From NCBI GenBank assembly GCA_965237525.1, contig CBDEFO010000008.1, forward strand, positions 512,001 to 576,000: a stretch of DNA of 64,000 nucleotides, in the 5' to 3' direction. Positions within the stretch are counted from its first letter, which is position 1. Each line of letters starts with the position of its first letter. The DNA comes from Candidatus Latescibacterota bacterium. GTDB taxonomy: Bacteria; Latescibacterota; CBDEFO01. Position numbers and translations under genes: made by a program. Below the pieces are notes generated by a model, which did not search any database, had not been told where the DNA came from, and saw only the letters and a list, made by a program, of their open reading frames with translations. Positions 29,958-44,350 of the stretch are shown piece after piece.

Positions 29958-30148
29958 ATGGACCTTAAAGATACTATTTGTGAGGAGATCACTAAATTTC
30001 AGGAATTACAGATGGGAATAGTCCCCAGGAAAGCAACTGTCCTGATAGAGGAGGACATGATCGTCGTCCATCTCAAGGAGATGCTTTCTCCTGCTGAAAA
30101 GCATCTGGCTGTAAGCCAGAAGGGCCAAAATTTCCTAAGGGAGTTTAA
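29958..30148 (+). pseudogene. Second DUF2294 gene, disrupted by IS
   Basis: ITKFQ..QMG..P, DMI.V.LK..LS.AE..L similar to 27076-27483; frame runs into the IS end. Confidence 0.8.
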
Positions 30149-31667
30149 AAGCCTTGTGAAATAGTTATGTCCCAGGCAGCGTCTGAAGCGCCGATTATGG
30201 GTCAAAGAGAAGCATATCGTATCGTTTTGCTGTGGAATAAGCAAAATAGTCTTATCAGAGTTCTGGTCAGCAAGGAACAGGAGCTGTTTGAAGAACAGGA
30301 TGCACTGTCTTTGACAGACAGGGCACACATAGACGCTTTCCCCCTTCTTATGAAAGATACAAGCCTCTTGAGATTCTGTACTGTTGCAACAAGATTCAAC
30401 TGTTCATTCAGTGAGGCTGGTCCTCTGTAACGGGCTCGTCCCATACCGTGTTGTTGCCTGGCTTCAGCAAAGATATGTTCACTGCGTTTACGGAGTCTCC
30501 GGGAGAGTTTGTAGTCAGCTGTTAATGAGATAGACCGTGCATGATTTCTGGCTTTCGCCTCTCGCACTTTTCTATCCCGTTCGGCCTGAATATGTGCTGG
30601 ATTTGTCTTGTTTTTCCATGTAGGAATCGGTTCAATCTTCTCATCGGCTCGCAGAGGAATATGGGGTATGATTCCCCGGTCAAGTACATCAGCGATAAAA
30701 TTACCAGAACCGTAACCGGTATCGGCACTAAGTGTCTGAATGTCTTTGGGCATGGTGTATGTTTCAAGGTCATCTACCATCTTAAGGGCACTTTCGGGCT
30801 CTGCTGTCCCTGTCGCCTGCGTGCCCTGAGTCTCAAGGATTACTCTGCTTTTTGTGTCGATCAGATCATGGCCCATAAACGAGAGAAAAGCCCCTTTGCC
30901 CTTCGATTTGCTGTATAAGCGCGCGTCGGGGTCTGTAGTCGAACGGTGTGTTTGGTTCGTCCACTTTTCACCATGAAAGTCTTTATCCTGAGGATGCCCG
31001 GACCTACCCTTTGTCTTATCACCTTCAAAACCGATTCCCTTGAGATAATCATCAAGAGAAACAGGGGGTTCTATCGGCTCAATACTTTTCACTGAAGCAT
31101 CAGCTTGTATCTGAGTGCCGTCGACACTAAGGTGTTTACCGCTCACAAGACCGACATCTATGCAACACTGGACTACCTGACGCATTATCCGTTCAAACAA
31201 CCCACTGGATGCCCACTTGTGATTGCGAAGCTTGTTGATCGTGCTCCTATCCGGAACCGCATCATCAAATGTCTGATGACAAAACAACCGATATGCCGCA
31301 TGCATCCCCACTTCCTGACAGAGCCGATTCTCACTCAAATTATACAGATAGCCAATAAGGATCATTCGAACAACTAATTCAGGATCAATACCGGGTCTGC
31401 CATTGTCAGGGCAATAACAATCTGATACAACGTCTCGTATAAATGAAAAATCAACTGCCTCATCAATCTGACGAAGGATATGATCCTCGGGAACTAAATC
31501 CTCCATCTGAAAATAGTGAAACATCGGATTTGTCTGTTCCTGCTTTTGTGGGGTCATTGTTTCCTCCATGTATAATATTATCAATAACATAATATAATAC
31601 ATCGGAGCTGCTTTATCAATGCTTGTTCTATACTACTTTCTGAATCTAAGCGTTTTTCACAAGGCTT
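30149..31667 (-). mobile_element. IS1182-type insertion sequence, complete
   Basis: 13-bp TIR AAGCCTTGTGAAA / TTTCACAAGGCTT; TTAA duplication at 30145-30148 and 31668-31671. Confidence 0.9.
30202..31557 (-). CDS. IS1182/IS5-like DDE transposase
   Basis: VPEDH.LR, GRP.IDP, VDGT.I.A.AS, STTDPDA, ADTGY, R...EH.F. Confidence 0.92.
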   Translation of the reverse strand: MTPQKQEQTNPMFHYFQMEDLVPEDHILRQIDEAVDFSFIRDVVSDCYCPDNGRPGIDPELVVRMILIGYLYNLSENRLCQEVGMHAAYRLFCHQTFDDAVPDRSTINKLRNHKWASSGLFERIMRQVVQCCIDVGLVSGKHLSVDGTQIQADASVKSIEPIEPPVSLDDYLKGIGFEGDKTKGRSGHPQDKDFHGEKWTNQTHRSTTDPDARLYSKSKGKGAFLSFMGHDLIDTKSRVILETQGTQATGTAEPESALKMVDDLETYTMPKDIQTLSADTGYGSGNFIADVLDRGIIPHIPLRADEKIEPIPTWKNKTNPAHIQAERDRKVREAKARNHARSISLTADYKLSRRLRKRSEHIFAEARQQHGMGRARYRGPASLNEQLNLVATVQNLKRLVSFIRRGKASMCALSVKDSASCSSNSSCSLLTRTLIRLFCLFHSKTIRYASL

Positions 31668-31704
31668 TTAATGTGACTATCCTAAGTGAAGGCCCAATAT
31701 ATCA

Positions 31705-32846
31705 GGTAACAGCGTTGATGGTAATGACGCTTTAGGAAGTAGAGGCCTTCTCGTTGGACATTCCTGGTTCATAATCCGGAGGTAAGCAGTATGTCCAGTC
31801 CACCCGTCTACTGATGTGTCGTATTATGAGTTTCGAAGAAGACGATACGACACCTGATCAACTCAAGGTATTCTTCGCCCTACGTTTAGGATTAGATTAG
31901 AAATCAGCTTGTAGGACTTGTAGGGTAAGATACTTGGATCTATGTCATCCAGGGTTATTCAACAACCAGTGCTGAACTTGAAACAGTGCTACACTTGACG
32001 CGGTGATGAACTTGAGGCAGTGCTGAACTTGAAGCAGTGCTGAACTTTAAGCAGCGCTGAACTTGTTGGATCGCAACATCTGAGAAGACTGAATAACCCT
32101 GGGTAGTATGTCTTACAGATTAGGTGAACTGCTTTCATAATCCGGAGGTAAGTAGAATGTCCAGTCCAGGTGACTACTCATGTGTCGTATTGTGAGTTTT
32201 GCATACGACGATACGACACCTGATCAACTCAAGGTATTCTTCACCCTACGTTTAGGATTAGATCAGAAATCAGCTTGTAGGGCTTGTAGTAGGGTAGGAT
32301 ACTAGAATGTATGTCATCCAGGGTTATTCAGCAAGCAGTGCTGAACTTGTTGGATCGCAACATCTGGGAAGACTGAATAACCTTGGGTAGTATGTCTTAC
32401 AGATTAGGTGAACTGGTAAACGGGTGTGAACGGGAATGTCCTGTATTCGGGTAACAGCGTTGATGGTAATGACGCTTGAGGAAGTGAAGGCCTTCTCTTA
32501 AGGACATCTCGGTTGCAGATTCCGGAGGTAAGTAGAATGTCCAGACCACCGGACTACTGATGGTGTCGTATTGTGAGTTTTGCATACGACGATACGACAC
32601 CTGATCAACTCAAGGTATTCTTCGCCCTACGTTTAGGATTAGATTAGAAATCAGCCTGTAGGGCTTGTAGTAGGGTAGGATACTAGAATGTATGTCCCCC
32701 AGGGTTATTCAGCAAGCAGTGCTGAACTTGAAGCAGTGCTGAACTTGTTGGATCGCAACATCTGAGAAGACTGAATAACCCTGGGTAGTATGTCTTACAG
32801 ATTAGGTGAACTGCTAAACGGGTGTGAACGGGGATGTCCTGTATAA
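31705..32846 (+). ncRNA. Tandem array of three ~0.4-kb structured non-coding units (candidate novel ncRNA)
   Basis: Units at 31705-32133, 32134-32449 (5' truncated) and 32450-32846; several long stems per unit with G-U pairs on the + strand; no conserved long ORF; 3' terminator. The repeat is certain, the RNA status is inferred. Confidence 0.65.
31964..32065 (+). repeat. Six tandem 17-bp repeats AAGCAGTGCTGAACTTG
   Basis: Six copies in unit 1, one in unit 2, two in unit 3. Confidence 0.95.
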
Positions 32847-32847
32847 T

Positions 32848-32880
32848 GAGCCCCCTGCGAAACGTAGGGGGCTCTTGTTT
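32848..32880 (+). terminator. Intrinsic terminator closing the array
   Basis: GAGCCCCCTGC-GAAAC-GTAGGGGGCTC-TTGTTT. Confidence 0.85.
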
Positions 32881-32994: not shown

Positions 32995-33426
32995 TCAGAA
33001 TGGAGAAACCCTATCTCGCCTTTGGAACTGGCTCATCCGGTTCTCCTGTTGCTCCTCCAGCTTCCCCTGCGCGTTCTTCTTCATATCCCTGAATTTGTCG
33101 GCGATGGCCACCCAGTCCGCGTCCCCACTTTCTTCCGCCTCAGCCATCATCTGCTCCCGCCTCTCCCACGGATCCTTCAGCAGCTCTCTGACCTGTTGCT
33201 CCTGCGCTTCTGTCAGCTCCAGCGCGAAGGAAAGTCGTGTCCAGAACCAATCGATATCTAAGGCCCGCATGGCCTCCATCCGGGGCTGCATCGCCCCGAA
33301 TCGCTCTTGATCAAATGTGCCCATTCCCCGAAACACCTCTTCTCCCGCCGCTTTAGCCGCCGAGCAGCCTATGGAGGCCAGAACGAGCAGGCCACAGATT
33401 ATCAGAACAATACGCCTTATCTCCAT
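32995..33426 (-). CDS. Putative lipoprotein, Spy/CpxP-like helical
   Basis: Lipobox-like SIGC; L.LTEAQ..QVR motif. Confidence 0.55.
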   Translation of the reverse strand: MEIRRIVLIICGLLVLASIGCSAAKAAGEEVFRGMGTFDQERFGAMQPRMEAMRALDIDWFWTRLSFALELTEAQEQQVRELLKDPWERREQMMAEAEESGDADWVAIADKFRDMKKNAQGKLEEQQENRMSQFQRRDRVSPF

Positions 33427-33828
33427 CTGTTACATCTCCTTCCAACGCTTCCCTTTGTACGGGCGGGGTCACTCCATTCCTACTTCTTCGTGAGGTTGAT
33501 GTCCCCTATCTTCTGGTACTAAACTGTGATATGCGGCATGGTCTTAAGCTCCGTGCCGTTCTGACGTCACACAAATGCTCACTCACACCTCAGCTTGTCT
33601 AATGGTCTTCAACTCGATGTCTTCACTGTGGGACGAGGCCAAGCCGCCGTCGGGGAAGCCTACTTCAGCTGGCTCTTGATCTGCCGCCAGCTTTCCGACT
33701 GGACTGACGTCGATCCATTTCCTCACGCCTTTTCTGTCTTTTCTCCTGTATCTGCTCCCGGTCCTTTCTGTGATCTTCTGTCAGTTAAGTGATTTACCTC
33801 CTGTTTTGTGTTGTTCCCTAACTCTTTA

Positions 33829-34103
33829 TTTTGTTTAGGCTAACAGCCTCTCACCTTTTACGATGTTTCTTTATTTTTCACGGTGTTTCGGCTTGTTCCA
33901 GTAGAAATTTAGTAGAAGCTGGTAGAAAAGTAGCGGACAAAATTACTGAGGGATATTTAGTTTTCTTAGAAGCGCTTTTAAGTAGGAGCATAGCAACCCA
34001 TCGAGGCCTATCAATTCTCACCCACCTCCAAACTGAGAACTGAATGGTCCTACGACAACCACCGATTCTTATTGACATCTGCTATCTTATTTTGTATCTT
34101 CCC
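33829..34103. repeat. ~275-bp element, diverged inverted copy of 56733-57006
   Basis: Collinear similarity by eye, e.g. TGGAACAAGC..AAACACCGTGAAA and GTAATTTTGTCC. Confidence 0.8.
34072..34100 (+). promoter_or_regulatory. Sigma70-type promoter inside the repeated element
   Basis: TTGACA-17 nt-TATCTT, conserved in both copies. Confidence 0.65.
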
Positions 34104-34111
34104 TGCAATTC

Positions 34112-34852
34112 GTGCGGTACTCGGCCGTGAAACCGAAGACGGCTTTGAATTTGATTTCGAGCATGACGTCTTCATGGTTGACACCAGAACTCCCATCGGC
34201 CGCGGGGGATATTGGCGCACTGCATAAGAACAACTTCAGCTACGTGGCATACGGTCTCCATGACACCAGCGCCGTCACCGTGGTGGTGAACTACGCTCTG
34301 GTACCAGACGTTAGTTTTGACGAACTTGTCCGTCAGTGCCGCGCAGCGCTTGCTTGGATTTGGAGGAATGCAGATCGCTTCGGCGGTAACCGCGAACAAA
34401 TATTTGTCTCGGGCCACTCGGCAGGCGGGCACCTCGTTGCAATGATGATGGCGACCGACTGGCCCGCATTCGACCCGGAGTTGCCCGTCCAGCCGATCTG
34501 TGGCGGTTGTGGAATCAGCGGCCTTTATGACCTCGAGCCCATCCGGCTCTGCTTTCTGAACGAGGATCTCAGGCTCAGCGAGGAAGACGCGGCACGCAAT
34601 AGCCCCATGAAACAACGGCGCACCTGTCTCTCACCCCTTTTGTTGCCAGTTGGCGCGACGGAAGGGCCAGAGTATCTACGTCAGTCAAATGACCTCGCCG
34701 AAGCTTGGTTTCACTCCGGCAAGACACCTGACGTCCTGGTGATGCTGGGCCACAACCATTTTTCCATCGCGACGCAGCTGGATGATCCGGAAAGTGAACT
34801 ATCCCGAGCGATCCAGTATCAAATGGGCCTGGGGCCCGGCCCGCCCGGATGA
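34112..34852 (+). pseudogene. Alpha/beta hydrolase (kynurenine formamidase-like), N-terminally truncated
   Basis: GHSAGGH, SGLYDL and NHF motifs present; upstream HGG oxyanion motif absent. Confidence 0.7.
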
Positions 34853-41468: not shown

Positions 41469-42794
41469 ATGAGAGTATTTTCAAAAGTTTTCGTGATTCC
41501 ATTCCTATGTTTGACCTTTGCCGCAAAGTGCTTTTCCCCAGAAACATCTGAATGGGAAACCCTAAACGAAAAGGCAACAAGCCTCTACGAACAAGGTCAG
41601 TATGAGGAAGCAGTTAAGTTTGCGAAAGAGGCTTTGAAAATAGCTGAGGAAACTTTCGGTCCAGACCATCCCAATATGGCGCTCTCCCTGAACAATCTGG
41701 GGGAATTGTACAGAACTCAGGGCGAGTATGTCGAGGCTGAGCCCCTTTACAAGCGGTCACTGGCAATATTGGAAAAATCCCTTGGGAAAGACCACCCCGA
41801 TGTGGCGCAATCCCTGAACAATCTGGCATTGCTTTATAATACCCAGGGCAAGTATGCCGAGGCTGAGCCCCCTTTCAAGAGAGCACTGGCAATAGCAGAG
41901 AAAGCCCTTGGGAAAGACCACCCCGATGTGGCGACCTCCCTGAACAATCTGGCGGGACTTTATGTGGCTCAGGGCAAGTATGCTGAGGCTGAGCCCCTTC
42001 ACAAGCGAGCACTGGCAATATGGGAAAAAGCCCTTGGAAAAGACCATCCTACAGTGGCGAGCTCCCTAAACAATCTGGCGGGACTTTATGTGGCTCAGGG
42101 CAAGTATGCTGAGGCTGAGCCTCTTTACAAGAGGTCACTGGCAATATTGGAAAAATCCCTTGGGAAAGACCATCCCGATCTGGCGCTCTCCCTGAACAAT
42201 CTGGCGTTACTTTATCAAGATCAGGGCAAGTATGCCGAGGCTGGGCCCCTTTACAAGCGGTCACTGGCAATAAAGGAAAAAGCCCTTGGAAAAGACCATC
42301 CCGATGTGGCGCTCTCCCTGAACAATCTGGCAGCACTTTACTATGATCAGGGAAAGTATGCCGAGGCTGAGCCCCTTCAGAAGCGAGCACTGGCAATATG
42401 GGAAGAAGTCCTGGGAAAAGACCACCCCCACGTGGCGACCTCCCTGAACAATCTGGCATTGCTTTATAATACCCAGGGAAAGTATGCCGAGGCTGAGCCC
42501 CTTCACAAGCGGTCACTGGCAATAAGGGAAAAAGCTCTTGGGAAAGACCACCCCGATGTGGCAACCTCCCTGCACAATCTAGCGTTACTTTATAAGACCC
42601 AGGGGAAGTATGCCGAGGCTGAGCCCCTTTACAAGCGGTCACTGGCAATATGGGAAAAAGCCCTTGGAAACGATCACCCCCACGTGGCGACTTCCCTCGC
42701 GAACATGGCAGATCTTTACAAGAAGATTGGAAAGGAAGATGAAGCCAAGAGGTTGGAAGAACGTGCAGAAGGAATTCGTTCAAGAAACCAGTGA
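41469..42794 (+). CDS. Secreted 42-aa TPR repeat protein (8 full repeats plus caps)
   Basis: 126-bp tandem units HPxVAxSLNNLAxLYxxQGKYAEAEPLxKRxLAIxEKALGKD; N-terminal signal. Confidence 0.93.
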   Translation: MRVFSKVFVIPFLCLTFAAKCFSPETSEWETLNEKATSLYEQGQYEEAVKFAKEALKIAEETFGPDHPNMALSLNNLGELYRTQGEYVEAEPLYKRSLAILEKSLGKDHPDVAQSLNNLALLYNTQGKYAEAEPPFKRALAIAEKALGKDHPDVATSLNNLAGLYVAQGKYAEAEPLHKRALAIWEKALGKDHPTVASSLNNLAGLYVAQGKYAEAEPLYKRSLAILEKSLGKDHPDLALSLNNLALLYQDQGKYAEAGPLYKRSLAIKEKALGKDHPDVALSLNNLAALYYDQGKYAEAEPLQKRALAIWEEVLGKDHPHVATSLNNLALLYNTQGKYAEAEPLHKRSLAIREKALGKDHPDVATSLHNLALLYKTQGKYAEAEPLYKRSLAIWEKALGNDHPHVATSLANMADLYKKIGKEDEAKRLEERAEGIRSRNQ

Positions 42795-42898
42795 TGACAA
42801 TGCGGCCATCTGTTTCCCGCCGTGGTGAACGTGAACAGCAACGAGGGCAATCTCTGAGGAATTATTGCTTGATTCCTTAGTCGATAGGAGTAGCAGAC

Positions 42899-44350
42899 AT
42901 GAGAGCATTTTCAAAAGTTTTCGTGATTCCATTCCTATGTTTGACCTTGGCCGTAAACTGCTTTTCCCCAGAAACATCTGAATGGGAAAGATTAAACGAA
43001 AAGGCAAGAAGCCTCTACGAACAAGGTCAGTATGAGGAAGCAGTTAAGTTTGCCAAAGAGGCTTTGAAAATAGCTGAGGAAACTTTCGGTCCAGATCACC
43101 CTGATGTAGCGCAATCCCTGAACAATCTGGCGGCACTATATGATTCTCAGGGCAAGTATGCCGAGGCTGAGCCCCTTCACAAACGGTCACTGGCAATATG
43201 GGAAAAAGCTCTTGGGGAAGACCACCCCGATGTGGCAACCTCCCTGAACAATCTGGCGGCACTATATGATTCTCAGGGCAAGTATGCCGAGGCTGAGCCC
43301 CTTCACAAGCGAGCACTGGCAATATGGGAAAAAGCTCTTGGGGAAGACCACCCCGATGTGGCGCACTCCCTGAACAATCTGGGGGAATTGTACAGAACTC
43401 AGGGAAAGTATGCCGAGGCTGAGCCTCTTTACAAGAGGTCACTGGCAATATTGGAAAAAGCCCTTGGGAAAGACCACCCCAATGTGGCGCTCTCCCTGAA
43501 CAATCTGGCATTGCTTTATAATACCCAGGGCAAGTATGCTGAGGCTGAGCCTCTTTACAAGAGGTCACTGGCAATAGCAGAGAAAGCCCTTGGGAAAGAC
43601 CACCCCAATGTGGCGACCTCCCTAAACAATCTGGCGGAACTTTATTCTTACCAGGGCAAGTATGCCGAGGCTGAGCCCCTTCACAAGCGAGCACTGGCAA
43701 TATGGGAAAGAGCCCCTGGAAAAGACCACCCCAATGTGGCGACCTCCCTGGACAATCTAGCGGGACTTTATGAATCTCAGGGCAAGTATGCCGAGGCTGA
43801 GCCCCTTTTCAAGAGAGCACTGGCAATAGCAGAGAAAGCCCTTGGAAAAGACCACCCCAATGTGGCGACCTCCCTGAACAATCTGGCAGCACTTTACCAT
43901 GCTCAGGGAAAGTATGCCGATGCTGAGCCCCTTTTCAAGAGAGCACTGGCAATATTGGAAAAAGTCCTTGGGAAAGACCACCCCAATGTGGCGCTCTCCC
44001 TGAACAATCTGGCGGGACTTTATGTGTCTCAGGGCAAGTATGCCGATGCTGAGCCCCTTTTCAAGAGAGCACTGGCAATAGCAGAGAAAGCCCTTGGAAA
44101 CGATCACCCCCACCTGGCGCTCTCCCTGAACAATCTGGCATTGCTTTATAATGCCCAGGGAAAGTATGCCGAGGCTGAGCCTCTTTACAAGCGGTCACTG
44201 GCAATATACGAGAAATCCCTTGGCAAAGACCATCCCAATGTAGCGACCTCCCTGAACAATCTGTCAGAGCTTTACAAGAAGATTGGAAAGGAAGATGAAG
44301 CCAAAAGGTTGGAAGAGCGTGCAGAAGGAATTCGTTCAAGAAACCAGTAA
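42899..44350 (+). CDS. Secreted 42-aa TPR repeat protein (9 full repeats plus caps)
   Basis: Tandem paralog exactly 42 aa longer, with near-identical caps. Confidence 0.93.
   Translation: MRAFSKVFVIPFLCLTLAVNCFSPETSEWERLNEKARSLYEQGQYEEAVKFAKEALKIAEETFGPDHPDVAQSLNNLAALYDSQGKYAEAEPLHKRSLAIWEKALGEDHPDVATSLNNLAALYDSQGKYAEAEPLHKRALAIWEKALGEDHPDVAHSLNNLGELYRTQGKYAEAEPLYKRSLAILEKALGKDHPNVALSLNNLALLYNTQGKYAEAEPLYKRSLAIAEKALGKDHPNVATSLNNLAELYSYQGKYAEAEPLHKRALAIWERAPGKDHPNVATSLDNLAGLYESQGKYAEAEPLFKRALAIAEKALGKDHPNVATSLNNLAALYHAQGKYADAEPLFKRALAILEKVLGKDHPNVALSLNNLAGLYVSQGKYADAEPLFKRALAIAEKALGNDHPHLALSLNNLALLYNAQGKYAEAEPLYKRSLAIYEKSLGKDHPNVATSLNNLSELYKKIGKEDEAKRLEERAEGIRSRNQ

Follow-up and report, generated by a model that had tools for sequence, protein, structure and literature searches.

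The question raised by this locus is whether a tandem array of structured units of about 400 nt, found in the window (the whole stretch of 64,000 nucleotides that was analysed), represents a gene for an undescribed RNA or a mosaic assembled from mobile DNA and recombination. The array that an earlier note had read from the sequence is there: TRF detects 3.0 head-to-tail copies with a period of 381 between 31705 and 32844, with a unit-to-unit identity of 90.6-94.3% over aligned columns. All the stems that had been named were found again, the junction between units 1 and 2 is indeed short of approx. 100 nt (the 3' arm, the linker and the 5' hairpins are missing), and the + strand carries an intrinsic terminator at 32848-32874. 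On the other hand, a 17-nt internal repeat, an SD/AUG, an insertion sequence (IS) and a lost sigma gene had been overlooked. The main components of the locus are:

30145..31671, - strand, IS1182-like insertion sequence (Pfam DUF772/DDE)
31702..32131, + strand, unit 1, without the 3' arm of the closing helix and fused to unit 2
32132..32446, + strand, unit 2, 5' hairpins absent, closing helix missing its 5' arm
32447..32846, + strand, unit 3, complete
32848..32880, + strand, intrinsic terminator, kept 3' of all three known arrays

An assembly artefact, which had been proposed as a possible refutation, is ruled out by the sister genome of the same genus (G001), where a syntenic array and a second array are present, and a contig from an RNA run that spans the boundary of units 2 and 3 also argues against it. 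The arrays of G001 consist of four and three units, giving ten units with those of the window; the terminator accompanies the second of these arrays into different, unrelated flanking DNA. In the window's genome (G000) the unit occupies one locus, with no dispersed whole-unit copies. The closing helix (P1) is missing at the fused junctions and the P3-P4 domains are missing in 2 of the 10 units; deletions that fuse or shorten units show that the integrity of the monomer is not strictly preserved.

As the earlier note had anticipated, no Rfam family was detected above its gathering threshold; the best weak match reached 22.6 bits against 76. Nine sub-threshold matches fall over the array, and the only family found in the window was a tRNA, located elsewhere. 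The tmRNA and RNase P of G000 lie elsewhere in the genome; 6S RNA was not found in it, by a search that was positive in just 5 of 14 controls. The unit is present as DNA in 2 of 61 genomes (G000 and G001), and a model of P3-P4 detects the same number among 149 genomes of the phylum Latescibacterota. Scans with exact patterns, which diverged copies escape, produced 115 loci in metagenome contigs, none of them a true relative according to nhmmer, and 50 loci in GTDB contigs, where only L170 and L179 are true; these two carry the same arrays as G001 and are therefore not independent. In viral contigs, three exact array patterns (again blind to diverged copies) gave 0, 7 and 0 loci, the seven all due to chance, the end motif gave none and the sigma alignment retained 0 of 237 candidates; plasmids gave no match and phages two 25-nt chance matches. 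True relatives outside the genus were thus not found, which is not the same as absence. A literature search that mostly covered openly accessible papers found no description of the array RNA.

The unit is a composite, made of a unique part and of P5, a perfect hairpin akin to the ends of a dispersed MITE-like family. From 5' to 3' it starts with a 7-bp terminal helix that encloses a hairpin; then come the P1 5' strand, GGAGGT followed after 7 nt by AUG and a 7-codon frame, P3, P4, P5 with its 17-nt repeats, a short hairpin and the P1 3' strand:

31688..31750, + strand, likely 5' end, 7-bp helix GAAGGCC/GGCCTTC around the AGCGTT/GACGCT hairpin (MFE)
31756..31779, + strand, P1 5' strand, with two mutually exclusive partners, one local, over the SD/AUG, the other at 32421-32441
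31778..31814, + strand, GGAGGT SD, 7-nt spacer, AUG and 7-codon frame MSSPPVY, repeated at 32144 and 32524
31967..32065, + strand, 17-nt tandem repeat inside P5 of unit 1, six copies
32562..32601, + strand, P3 hairpin of unit 3, unique in the genome
32614..32684, + strand, P4 branched domain of unit 3, unique in the genome
32698..32785, + strand, P5 of unit 3, perfect 15-bp inverted repeat (likewise in units 1 and 2), arms matching the MITE-like end motif

Unit 3 folds with a z score of -4.5 on the + strand and -5.6 on the - strand; since both strands fold better than chance, z alone leaves the strand undecided. In a set of 16 control windows, each 300 nt long, the window within the array showed -5.35, one other -3.2 and the remainder values above -1.8. 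P3-P4 alone reach -5.6 on the + strand and -2.9 on the - strand, whereas the unit without P5 reaches just -2.4 on the + strand and its 5'-terminal 251 nt just -1.5. P1, P3 and P4 are 4-10 kcal/mol stronger on the + than on the - strand by virtue of G-U pairs, so the proposal that such pairs mark the + strand stands for these three helices and fails for the CCCAGGG hairpin, which is perfect on both strands. In the 5' helix, a C-to-T change in unit B1 preserves a G-U pair.

The stem formed by GGACAT and ATGTCC, listed in the earlier note, is present; nevertheless, the best partner of GGACAT is the 3' end of the unit, in a long-range duplex of 21 bp. This helix, P1, includes three or four G-U pairs, and in unit 3 it joins 32502-32525 with 32819-32839. 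The predicted energies of its two alternatives are approx. -11 kcal/mol for the local fold and -29.4 kcal/mol for the 21-bp long-range helix. Shuffled sequences equalled the end-closing duplex in 0/150 and 2/150 cases, and in a looser test of the whole ends, which was not significant, 65 of 300 shuffles were as good. Between the two unit types P1 shows one compensatory change, from U-A to C-G, and unit A3 has the mismatched combination. Covariation, the lack of which had been named as grounds for refutation, was not significant among the available copies: in seven copies of P3-P4, 97% of the cells pair and one of the 40 pairs changed on both sides, a count matched by 140 of 500 shuffles, and variable positions are about equally frequent in paired and unpaired columns (32/184 versus 32/220). 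Given that these copies are 90-99% identical, they offer little power to show or exclude selection on the structure.

The SD/AUG pattern is present in all ten units, and an SD plus ATG arises by chance in 2.5-8% of shuffles. Codons 5 and 6 of the 7-codon frame (31803-31808 in unit 1, 32549-32554 in unit 3) are hypervariable, with six haplotypes in eight units; among 173 windows, those away from this site show at most four. A coupled 28-codon frame is acidic, intact in five of eight units and altered or broken in the other three. No conserved hydrophobic frame of 20-60 residues was found, the best 14-residue mean hydropathy of the SD-linked frames being 1.05. A protein-coding repeat was considered and rejected, because steps of 17 nt shift the frame.

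Another aspect of the unit is the origin of P5, which accounts for 67-152 nt of each unit and, with its repeats, is the sole domain retained in all ten. The 17-nt repeat occurs once in unit 2 and twice in unit 3 (32714-32747); across the ten units it varies from one to eight copies, with 37 in total. A box C/D or K-turn reading was discarded, as UGAUGA appears in just 5 of the 37 repeats. A match to a MITE had also been named as a possible refutation, and it applies in part: P5 fits a MITE-like end motif and the rest of the unit does not. A profile of the dispersed family built without the array matches all three P5 arms genome-wide, with E values of 0.0005-0.015. When 72 18-mers were tiled over unit 3 and the terminator, one on a P5 arm had the most near-matches, 17 (1 and 5 for controls), and the next-highest had ten each, on the same P5 arm and on the A-rich loop of P4; outside P5, the unit has no relatives in G000.

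The family in question is an old MITE-like one in G000 (L201-L206) with ends of the CAGGGCTATTCAGTT type and approx. 35 strong sites, which often adjoin sigma-70-like promoters and sometimes enclose REP-like inserts; no RAYT (PF01797) was found in this genome. Its end motif occurs at 35 sites, versus two in the reversed genome, a comparison that is partly circular given that 20 sites seeded the matrix. The copies are stretches of approx. 85-220 bp bounded by inverted repeats, and one stands alone near the array:

33948..34052, no strand assigned, stand-alone copy of the dispersed MITE-like family

Target duplications, read off the flanking DNA, were seen in 3 of 10 copies at the CAGGG boundary, and in 7 of 10 if it is shifted by two bases; P5 has no in-register duplication. 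No empty site was seen for these elements, and two of the three tested are also present in G001. The P5 arms and the family both begin with CAGGG, and the end motif is similar to that on the left side of an ISAs1 element in genome G015, 104 bp before the start of the transposase; the ISAs1 copies of genome G145 start with CAGGG and generate 10-bp duplications. From these resemblances, P5 is likely, not certainly, derived from an old miniature element of the ISAs1 type, even though no ISAs1 transposase (PF13808) was found in either G000 or G001 and P5 is the only part of the unit that shares these features. An exact MITE pattern proved too strict for a wider survey, with 0 of 168 phylum genomes matched and even the copies of G000 itself missed.

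The DNA upstream of the array has been rearranged in G000. The IS1182-like element (265 bits with the NCBIfam IS1182 model, under its cut-off of 270; the IS5 model is passed) ends 30 nt upstream of unit 1 and took the place of 1,684 bp held by G001, with breakpoints defined by synteny with L016. In G001 this segment spans a GNAT gene, an ECF sigma gene and the terminal part of an MpsC-like gene, together with the -35 region of a putative promoter of the array. The element has more than 100 copies in G000, approx. 99% identical and in T/A-rich targets, indicative of a recent burst. The idea that the array belongs to the IS was rejected, since the IS stops 30 nt before it and its other copies lack the array. 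In G001 the sigma gene encodes a stress-type, ECF-type sigma factor of 175 residues (59.8 bits with the Sigma-70 ECF superfamily model TIGR02937, cut-off 42.9) and ends approx. 100 bp before the array; both arrays are so placed, the second near a recombinase/primase-like island. Two of the three sigma copies of G001 are followed by an array, and the third ends at a rearrangement junction without one. This link is one ancestral adjacency and not a set of independent cases. One contig from DNA run X7 joins the end of sigma and the array, and run X15 has window-type alleles with the native upstream spacer; from both, the IS deletion is probably strain-specific.

The sigma factor is an orphan, detected in 1 of 168 phylum genomes, with four relatives in the protein sets (P0003, P0004, P0005 and P0152; 37-42%); in G000 no orthologue was found, the best match being 28%. 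No anti-sigma gene is evident beside either array-linked copy, and a weak search found no longer, fused form. The region 4 helix of this subfamily is unusual, with TV-T/V-W-x-x-RA versus the TVKS/T-R/L of distant ECFs.

In G001, TGAAAG lies at -36 relative to the position equivalent to 31688, with TGAC 17 nt further on, a loose match made after the fact, and TGAAAC-15-CGTA precedes all three sigma copies. In PMC5758882, the sigma-W consensus is TGAAAC/CGTA with spacers of 14-17. The pattern, widened after the site had been seen, is not enriched in G000 (483 matches versus 542 in the reversed genome). A further promoter candidate straddles the end of the IS:

31656..31683, + strand, possible sigma-70-like promoter of hybrid make-up, TTCACA within the end of the IS and TATCCT beyond it, weak (9/12 match)

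Sigma-70-like sites in the region are not above chance, with nine seen versus 6.1 expected; a site at 31696-31724 on the - strand (9/12), likewise not above chance, lies at the 5' end of unit 1 and faces the sigma gene or the IS. No antisense promoter or terminator signal above chance was detected. GAACTT...TCTGA was rejected as a sigma-E promoter on account of its 14-nt spacer, judged against the familiar consensus.

Sequencing runs provide some weak hints that the array is probably transcribed. Six of the 20 runs listed are RNA runs, from three studies, and four of the six, which span the three studies, were compared with the window; they were selected by their match to this stretch, DNA carry-over is possible, and their contigs carry neither strand nor transcript start. 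Each of the four has contigs within the array, and 33012-34347 is free of contigs in all of them. The single array contig of run X18 begins at 31688, the first base of the 5' helix, with no mismatch and no cover of the IS, a weak hint to the start that comes from one study. Run X5, the source of a contig across the unit 2/3 boundary, has a depth of 17-31 over the IS and 7-12 over the array; an IS depth only two to three times that of the array fits RNA better than DNA, if the IS load is similar. Two RNA runs compared with the G001 locus cover only the array; the missing cover of the sigma gene is no evidence, as those strains carry the window's allele.

The claim of an undescribed structured RNA with its own terminator is favored by the lack of an Rfam match, the + strand helices, the travelling terminator and the RNA-run contigs, and it is weakened by the kinship of P5 with the MITE-like end motif and by the non-significant covariation. 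The best reading, which we hold tentatively, is that of a sigma-driven, fold-switching RNA amplified by recombination. It starts from the observed copies, rearrangements, sigma adjacency and loss, and SD/AUG retention, together with alternative pairings worked out on paper; from these we infer the strand, the start site, the sigma dependence, the switch and any translation. The unit would be a stand-alone RNA gene on the + strand, with an ECF-type promoter read by the upstream sigma of the sister genome. The sigma would recognize TGAAAG-17-TGAC, and the RNA would begin near 31688 and end at the 32848 terminator. During synthesis, the GGACAU strand is predicted to cover the SD and AUG until the emerging 3' end captures it in the 21-bp closing helix, a pairing like the 5'-3' long-range helix of type I toxin mRNAs. 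More speculatively, the exposed start could permit translation of the 7-codon or the coupled 28-codon frame, or ribosome binding could decide the fate of the RNA. The later steps are visible in the assemblies, where local recombination evidently multiplied the copies into fused, shortened and 17-nt-expanded units and, in this one, the IS evidently took out the sigma gene and left an orphaned copy. We counted in favor of this reading the strand-biased G-U pairs, P1 beating shuffles, its compensatory change and its two exclusive partners, the SD/AUG in ten of ten units, the terminator retention, the sigma adjacency, the promoter matches and the RNA-run contigs; against it we counted the non-significant covariation and whole-end test, the weak fold without P5, the tolerated loss of helices, the single origin of the sigma adjacency, the loose promoter pattern, the chance rate of SD/ATG, the broken 28-codon frames and the limits of the RNA-run contigs.

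Much of this could also be explained, in our view with a rather low probability, by a neutral mosaic, in which a short 3' region of the sigma gene gained a MITE and further hairpins and then expanded by recombination and slippage in a repeat-rich genome, any RNA being incidental or read-through. The match of P5 to the dispersed end motif (35 versus 2 sites, partly circular) is what such a history would leave, and damaging deletions are tolerated, the stems show no conservation signal, the range is narrow (2 of 149 phylum genomes) and the array persists in G000 without the sigma gene. However, the unit outside P5 has no relatives in the genome, the strand bias in G-U pairs and the compensated 21-bp helix are as expected if one strand is under selection, the RNA contigs end within the array, and one hypervariable spot amid invariant neighbors is unlike uniform drift. 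It is distinctly unlikely that the array is a non-coding protein sponge or an RNA partner of sigma. In that case a protein would be bound multivalently by the 17-nt repeats (with GAACUUGA loops) or by entire units, and this protein might be sigma, with the RNA taking the role of a protein anti-sigma. The retention of P5 with one to eight repeats as the only domain common to all ten units suits this proposal, as do the lack of an evident anti-sigma gene beside the array-linked copies, the failure of a weak search to find a fused sigma and the unusual region 4 helix; nevertheless, the P5 arms look DNA-derived, short repeats can expand without selection, GGA motifs are at chance (8 versus 8.4 expected), and CsrA was found in G001 (G001:C1:3458649-3458804) and not in G000. 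Its more specific version appears very improbable: the RNA would exclusively serve a rare subfamily of ECF sigma factors with an altered -35 recognition helix and no protein anti-sigma, and through multivalent binding of sigma or the holoenzyme it would act as an RNA anti-sigma or a specificity factor, with the six hypervariable bases or a tiny peptide tuning the output.

There is little chance that the locus is a type I toxin-antitoxin array like the long direct repeats of E. coli, with the 28-codon frame as the toxin. The features given in the T1TAdb paper (PMC8594479) for type I toxin mRNAs and LDR-type loci, i.e., units of 150-400 nt, tandem copies, SD sequestration and a 5'-3' helix (both predicted here) and a terminator, are all matched; however, no conserved hydrophobic frame of 20-60 residues was found (best mean hydropathy 1.05), the acidic 28-codon frame is changed or disrupted in three of eight units, and antisense promoter or terminator signals are not above chance. 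The array also differs in its tie to a sigma gene and in its MITE-like hairpin. By analogy, its RNA would work most like a type I toxin mRNA, yet it lacks the toxin frame. The least probable account is a guide or base-pairing RNA aimed at dispersed sites resembling P5, or, by means of the hypervariable bases, at mRNAs. In its favor, intergenic elements that are often found next to promoters show, on one strand, approx. 80% complementarity to the 3' arm of P5; against it, this match is to an inverted-repeat end that a 15-bp helix keeps paired, a scan of the neighbors revealed no Cas12f/TnpB-like gene, Hfq was not found in either genome, and exact 15-mer matches elsewhere number just three, none informative.

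Other known systems share single traits with the array. CsrB and RsmZ are long sponge RNAs with repeated short motifs and a terminator, as here, although in the array GGA is not enriched and no Rfam match was found. Arrays of the CRISPR, TIGR and type III antitoxin classes consist of short repeats accompanied by unique spacers or by a neighboring effector gene; here the 17-mers are all versions of a single unit, with no unique spacers between them, and no effector gene of these three kinds was found among the neighbors scanned. OLE, ROOL and GOLLD (PMC12286853) are large, multi-domain, structured RNAs like the array unit, which in contrast has no Rfam match, is confined to one genus, lies head-to-tail and shows no significant covariation. 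The dCas12f-sigmaE system (PMC12259090) also places an ECF-type sigma gene beside an RNA and not the usual anti-sigma gene, and the resemblance stops at this arrangement of genes: for the array no Cas12f-like partner or guide-target pair was found, and ECF-like promoter elements are present.

If functional, the array would represent a new 0.4-kb bacterial RNA architecture tied to an uncharacterised sigma subfamily, caught midway in its evolution through MITE capture, tandem amplification and the loss of sigma to an IS; direct control of the sigma by the RNA would be a new mode of ECF sigma regulation. If neutral, it shows that mobile debris can yield convincing RNA-like arrays. Its occurrence in one genus and its putative function limit its significance, and its parts are small enough for in vitro rebuilding.

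Several neighboring features were recorded in passing. On the - strand at 32995-33426, converging on the array terminator, an exported-looking protein of 143 residues with no Pfam match contains an LTEAQ motif as in Spy/CpxP. A 330-bp intergenic block (33770-34105) has approx. seven full copies in G000, in which a tRNA-like remnant, often present, is followed by GTAGAA repeats, the MITE-like element and a TTGACA-17-TATCTT promoter directed at the adjacent gene; the block resembles what is left of one end of a tRNA-targeting integrative element. The island-like region of G001 (L246 47-12372; L017 1-8066) contains recombinase-like and primase-like genes, named by eye, and after them MpsC-AsnC-MpsC-GNAT-sigma blocks in tandem duplication and another ECF gene that looks canonical. 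Further along the window, at 41663-44275, there are two TPR-like repeat genes with units of 126 bp.
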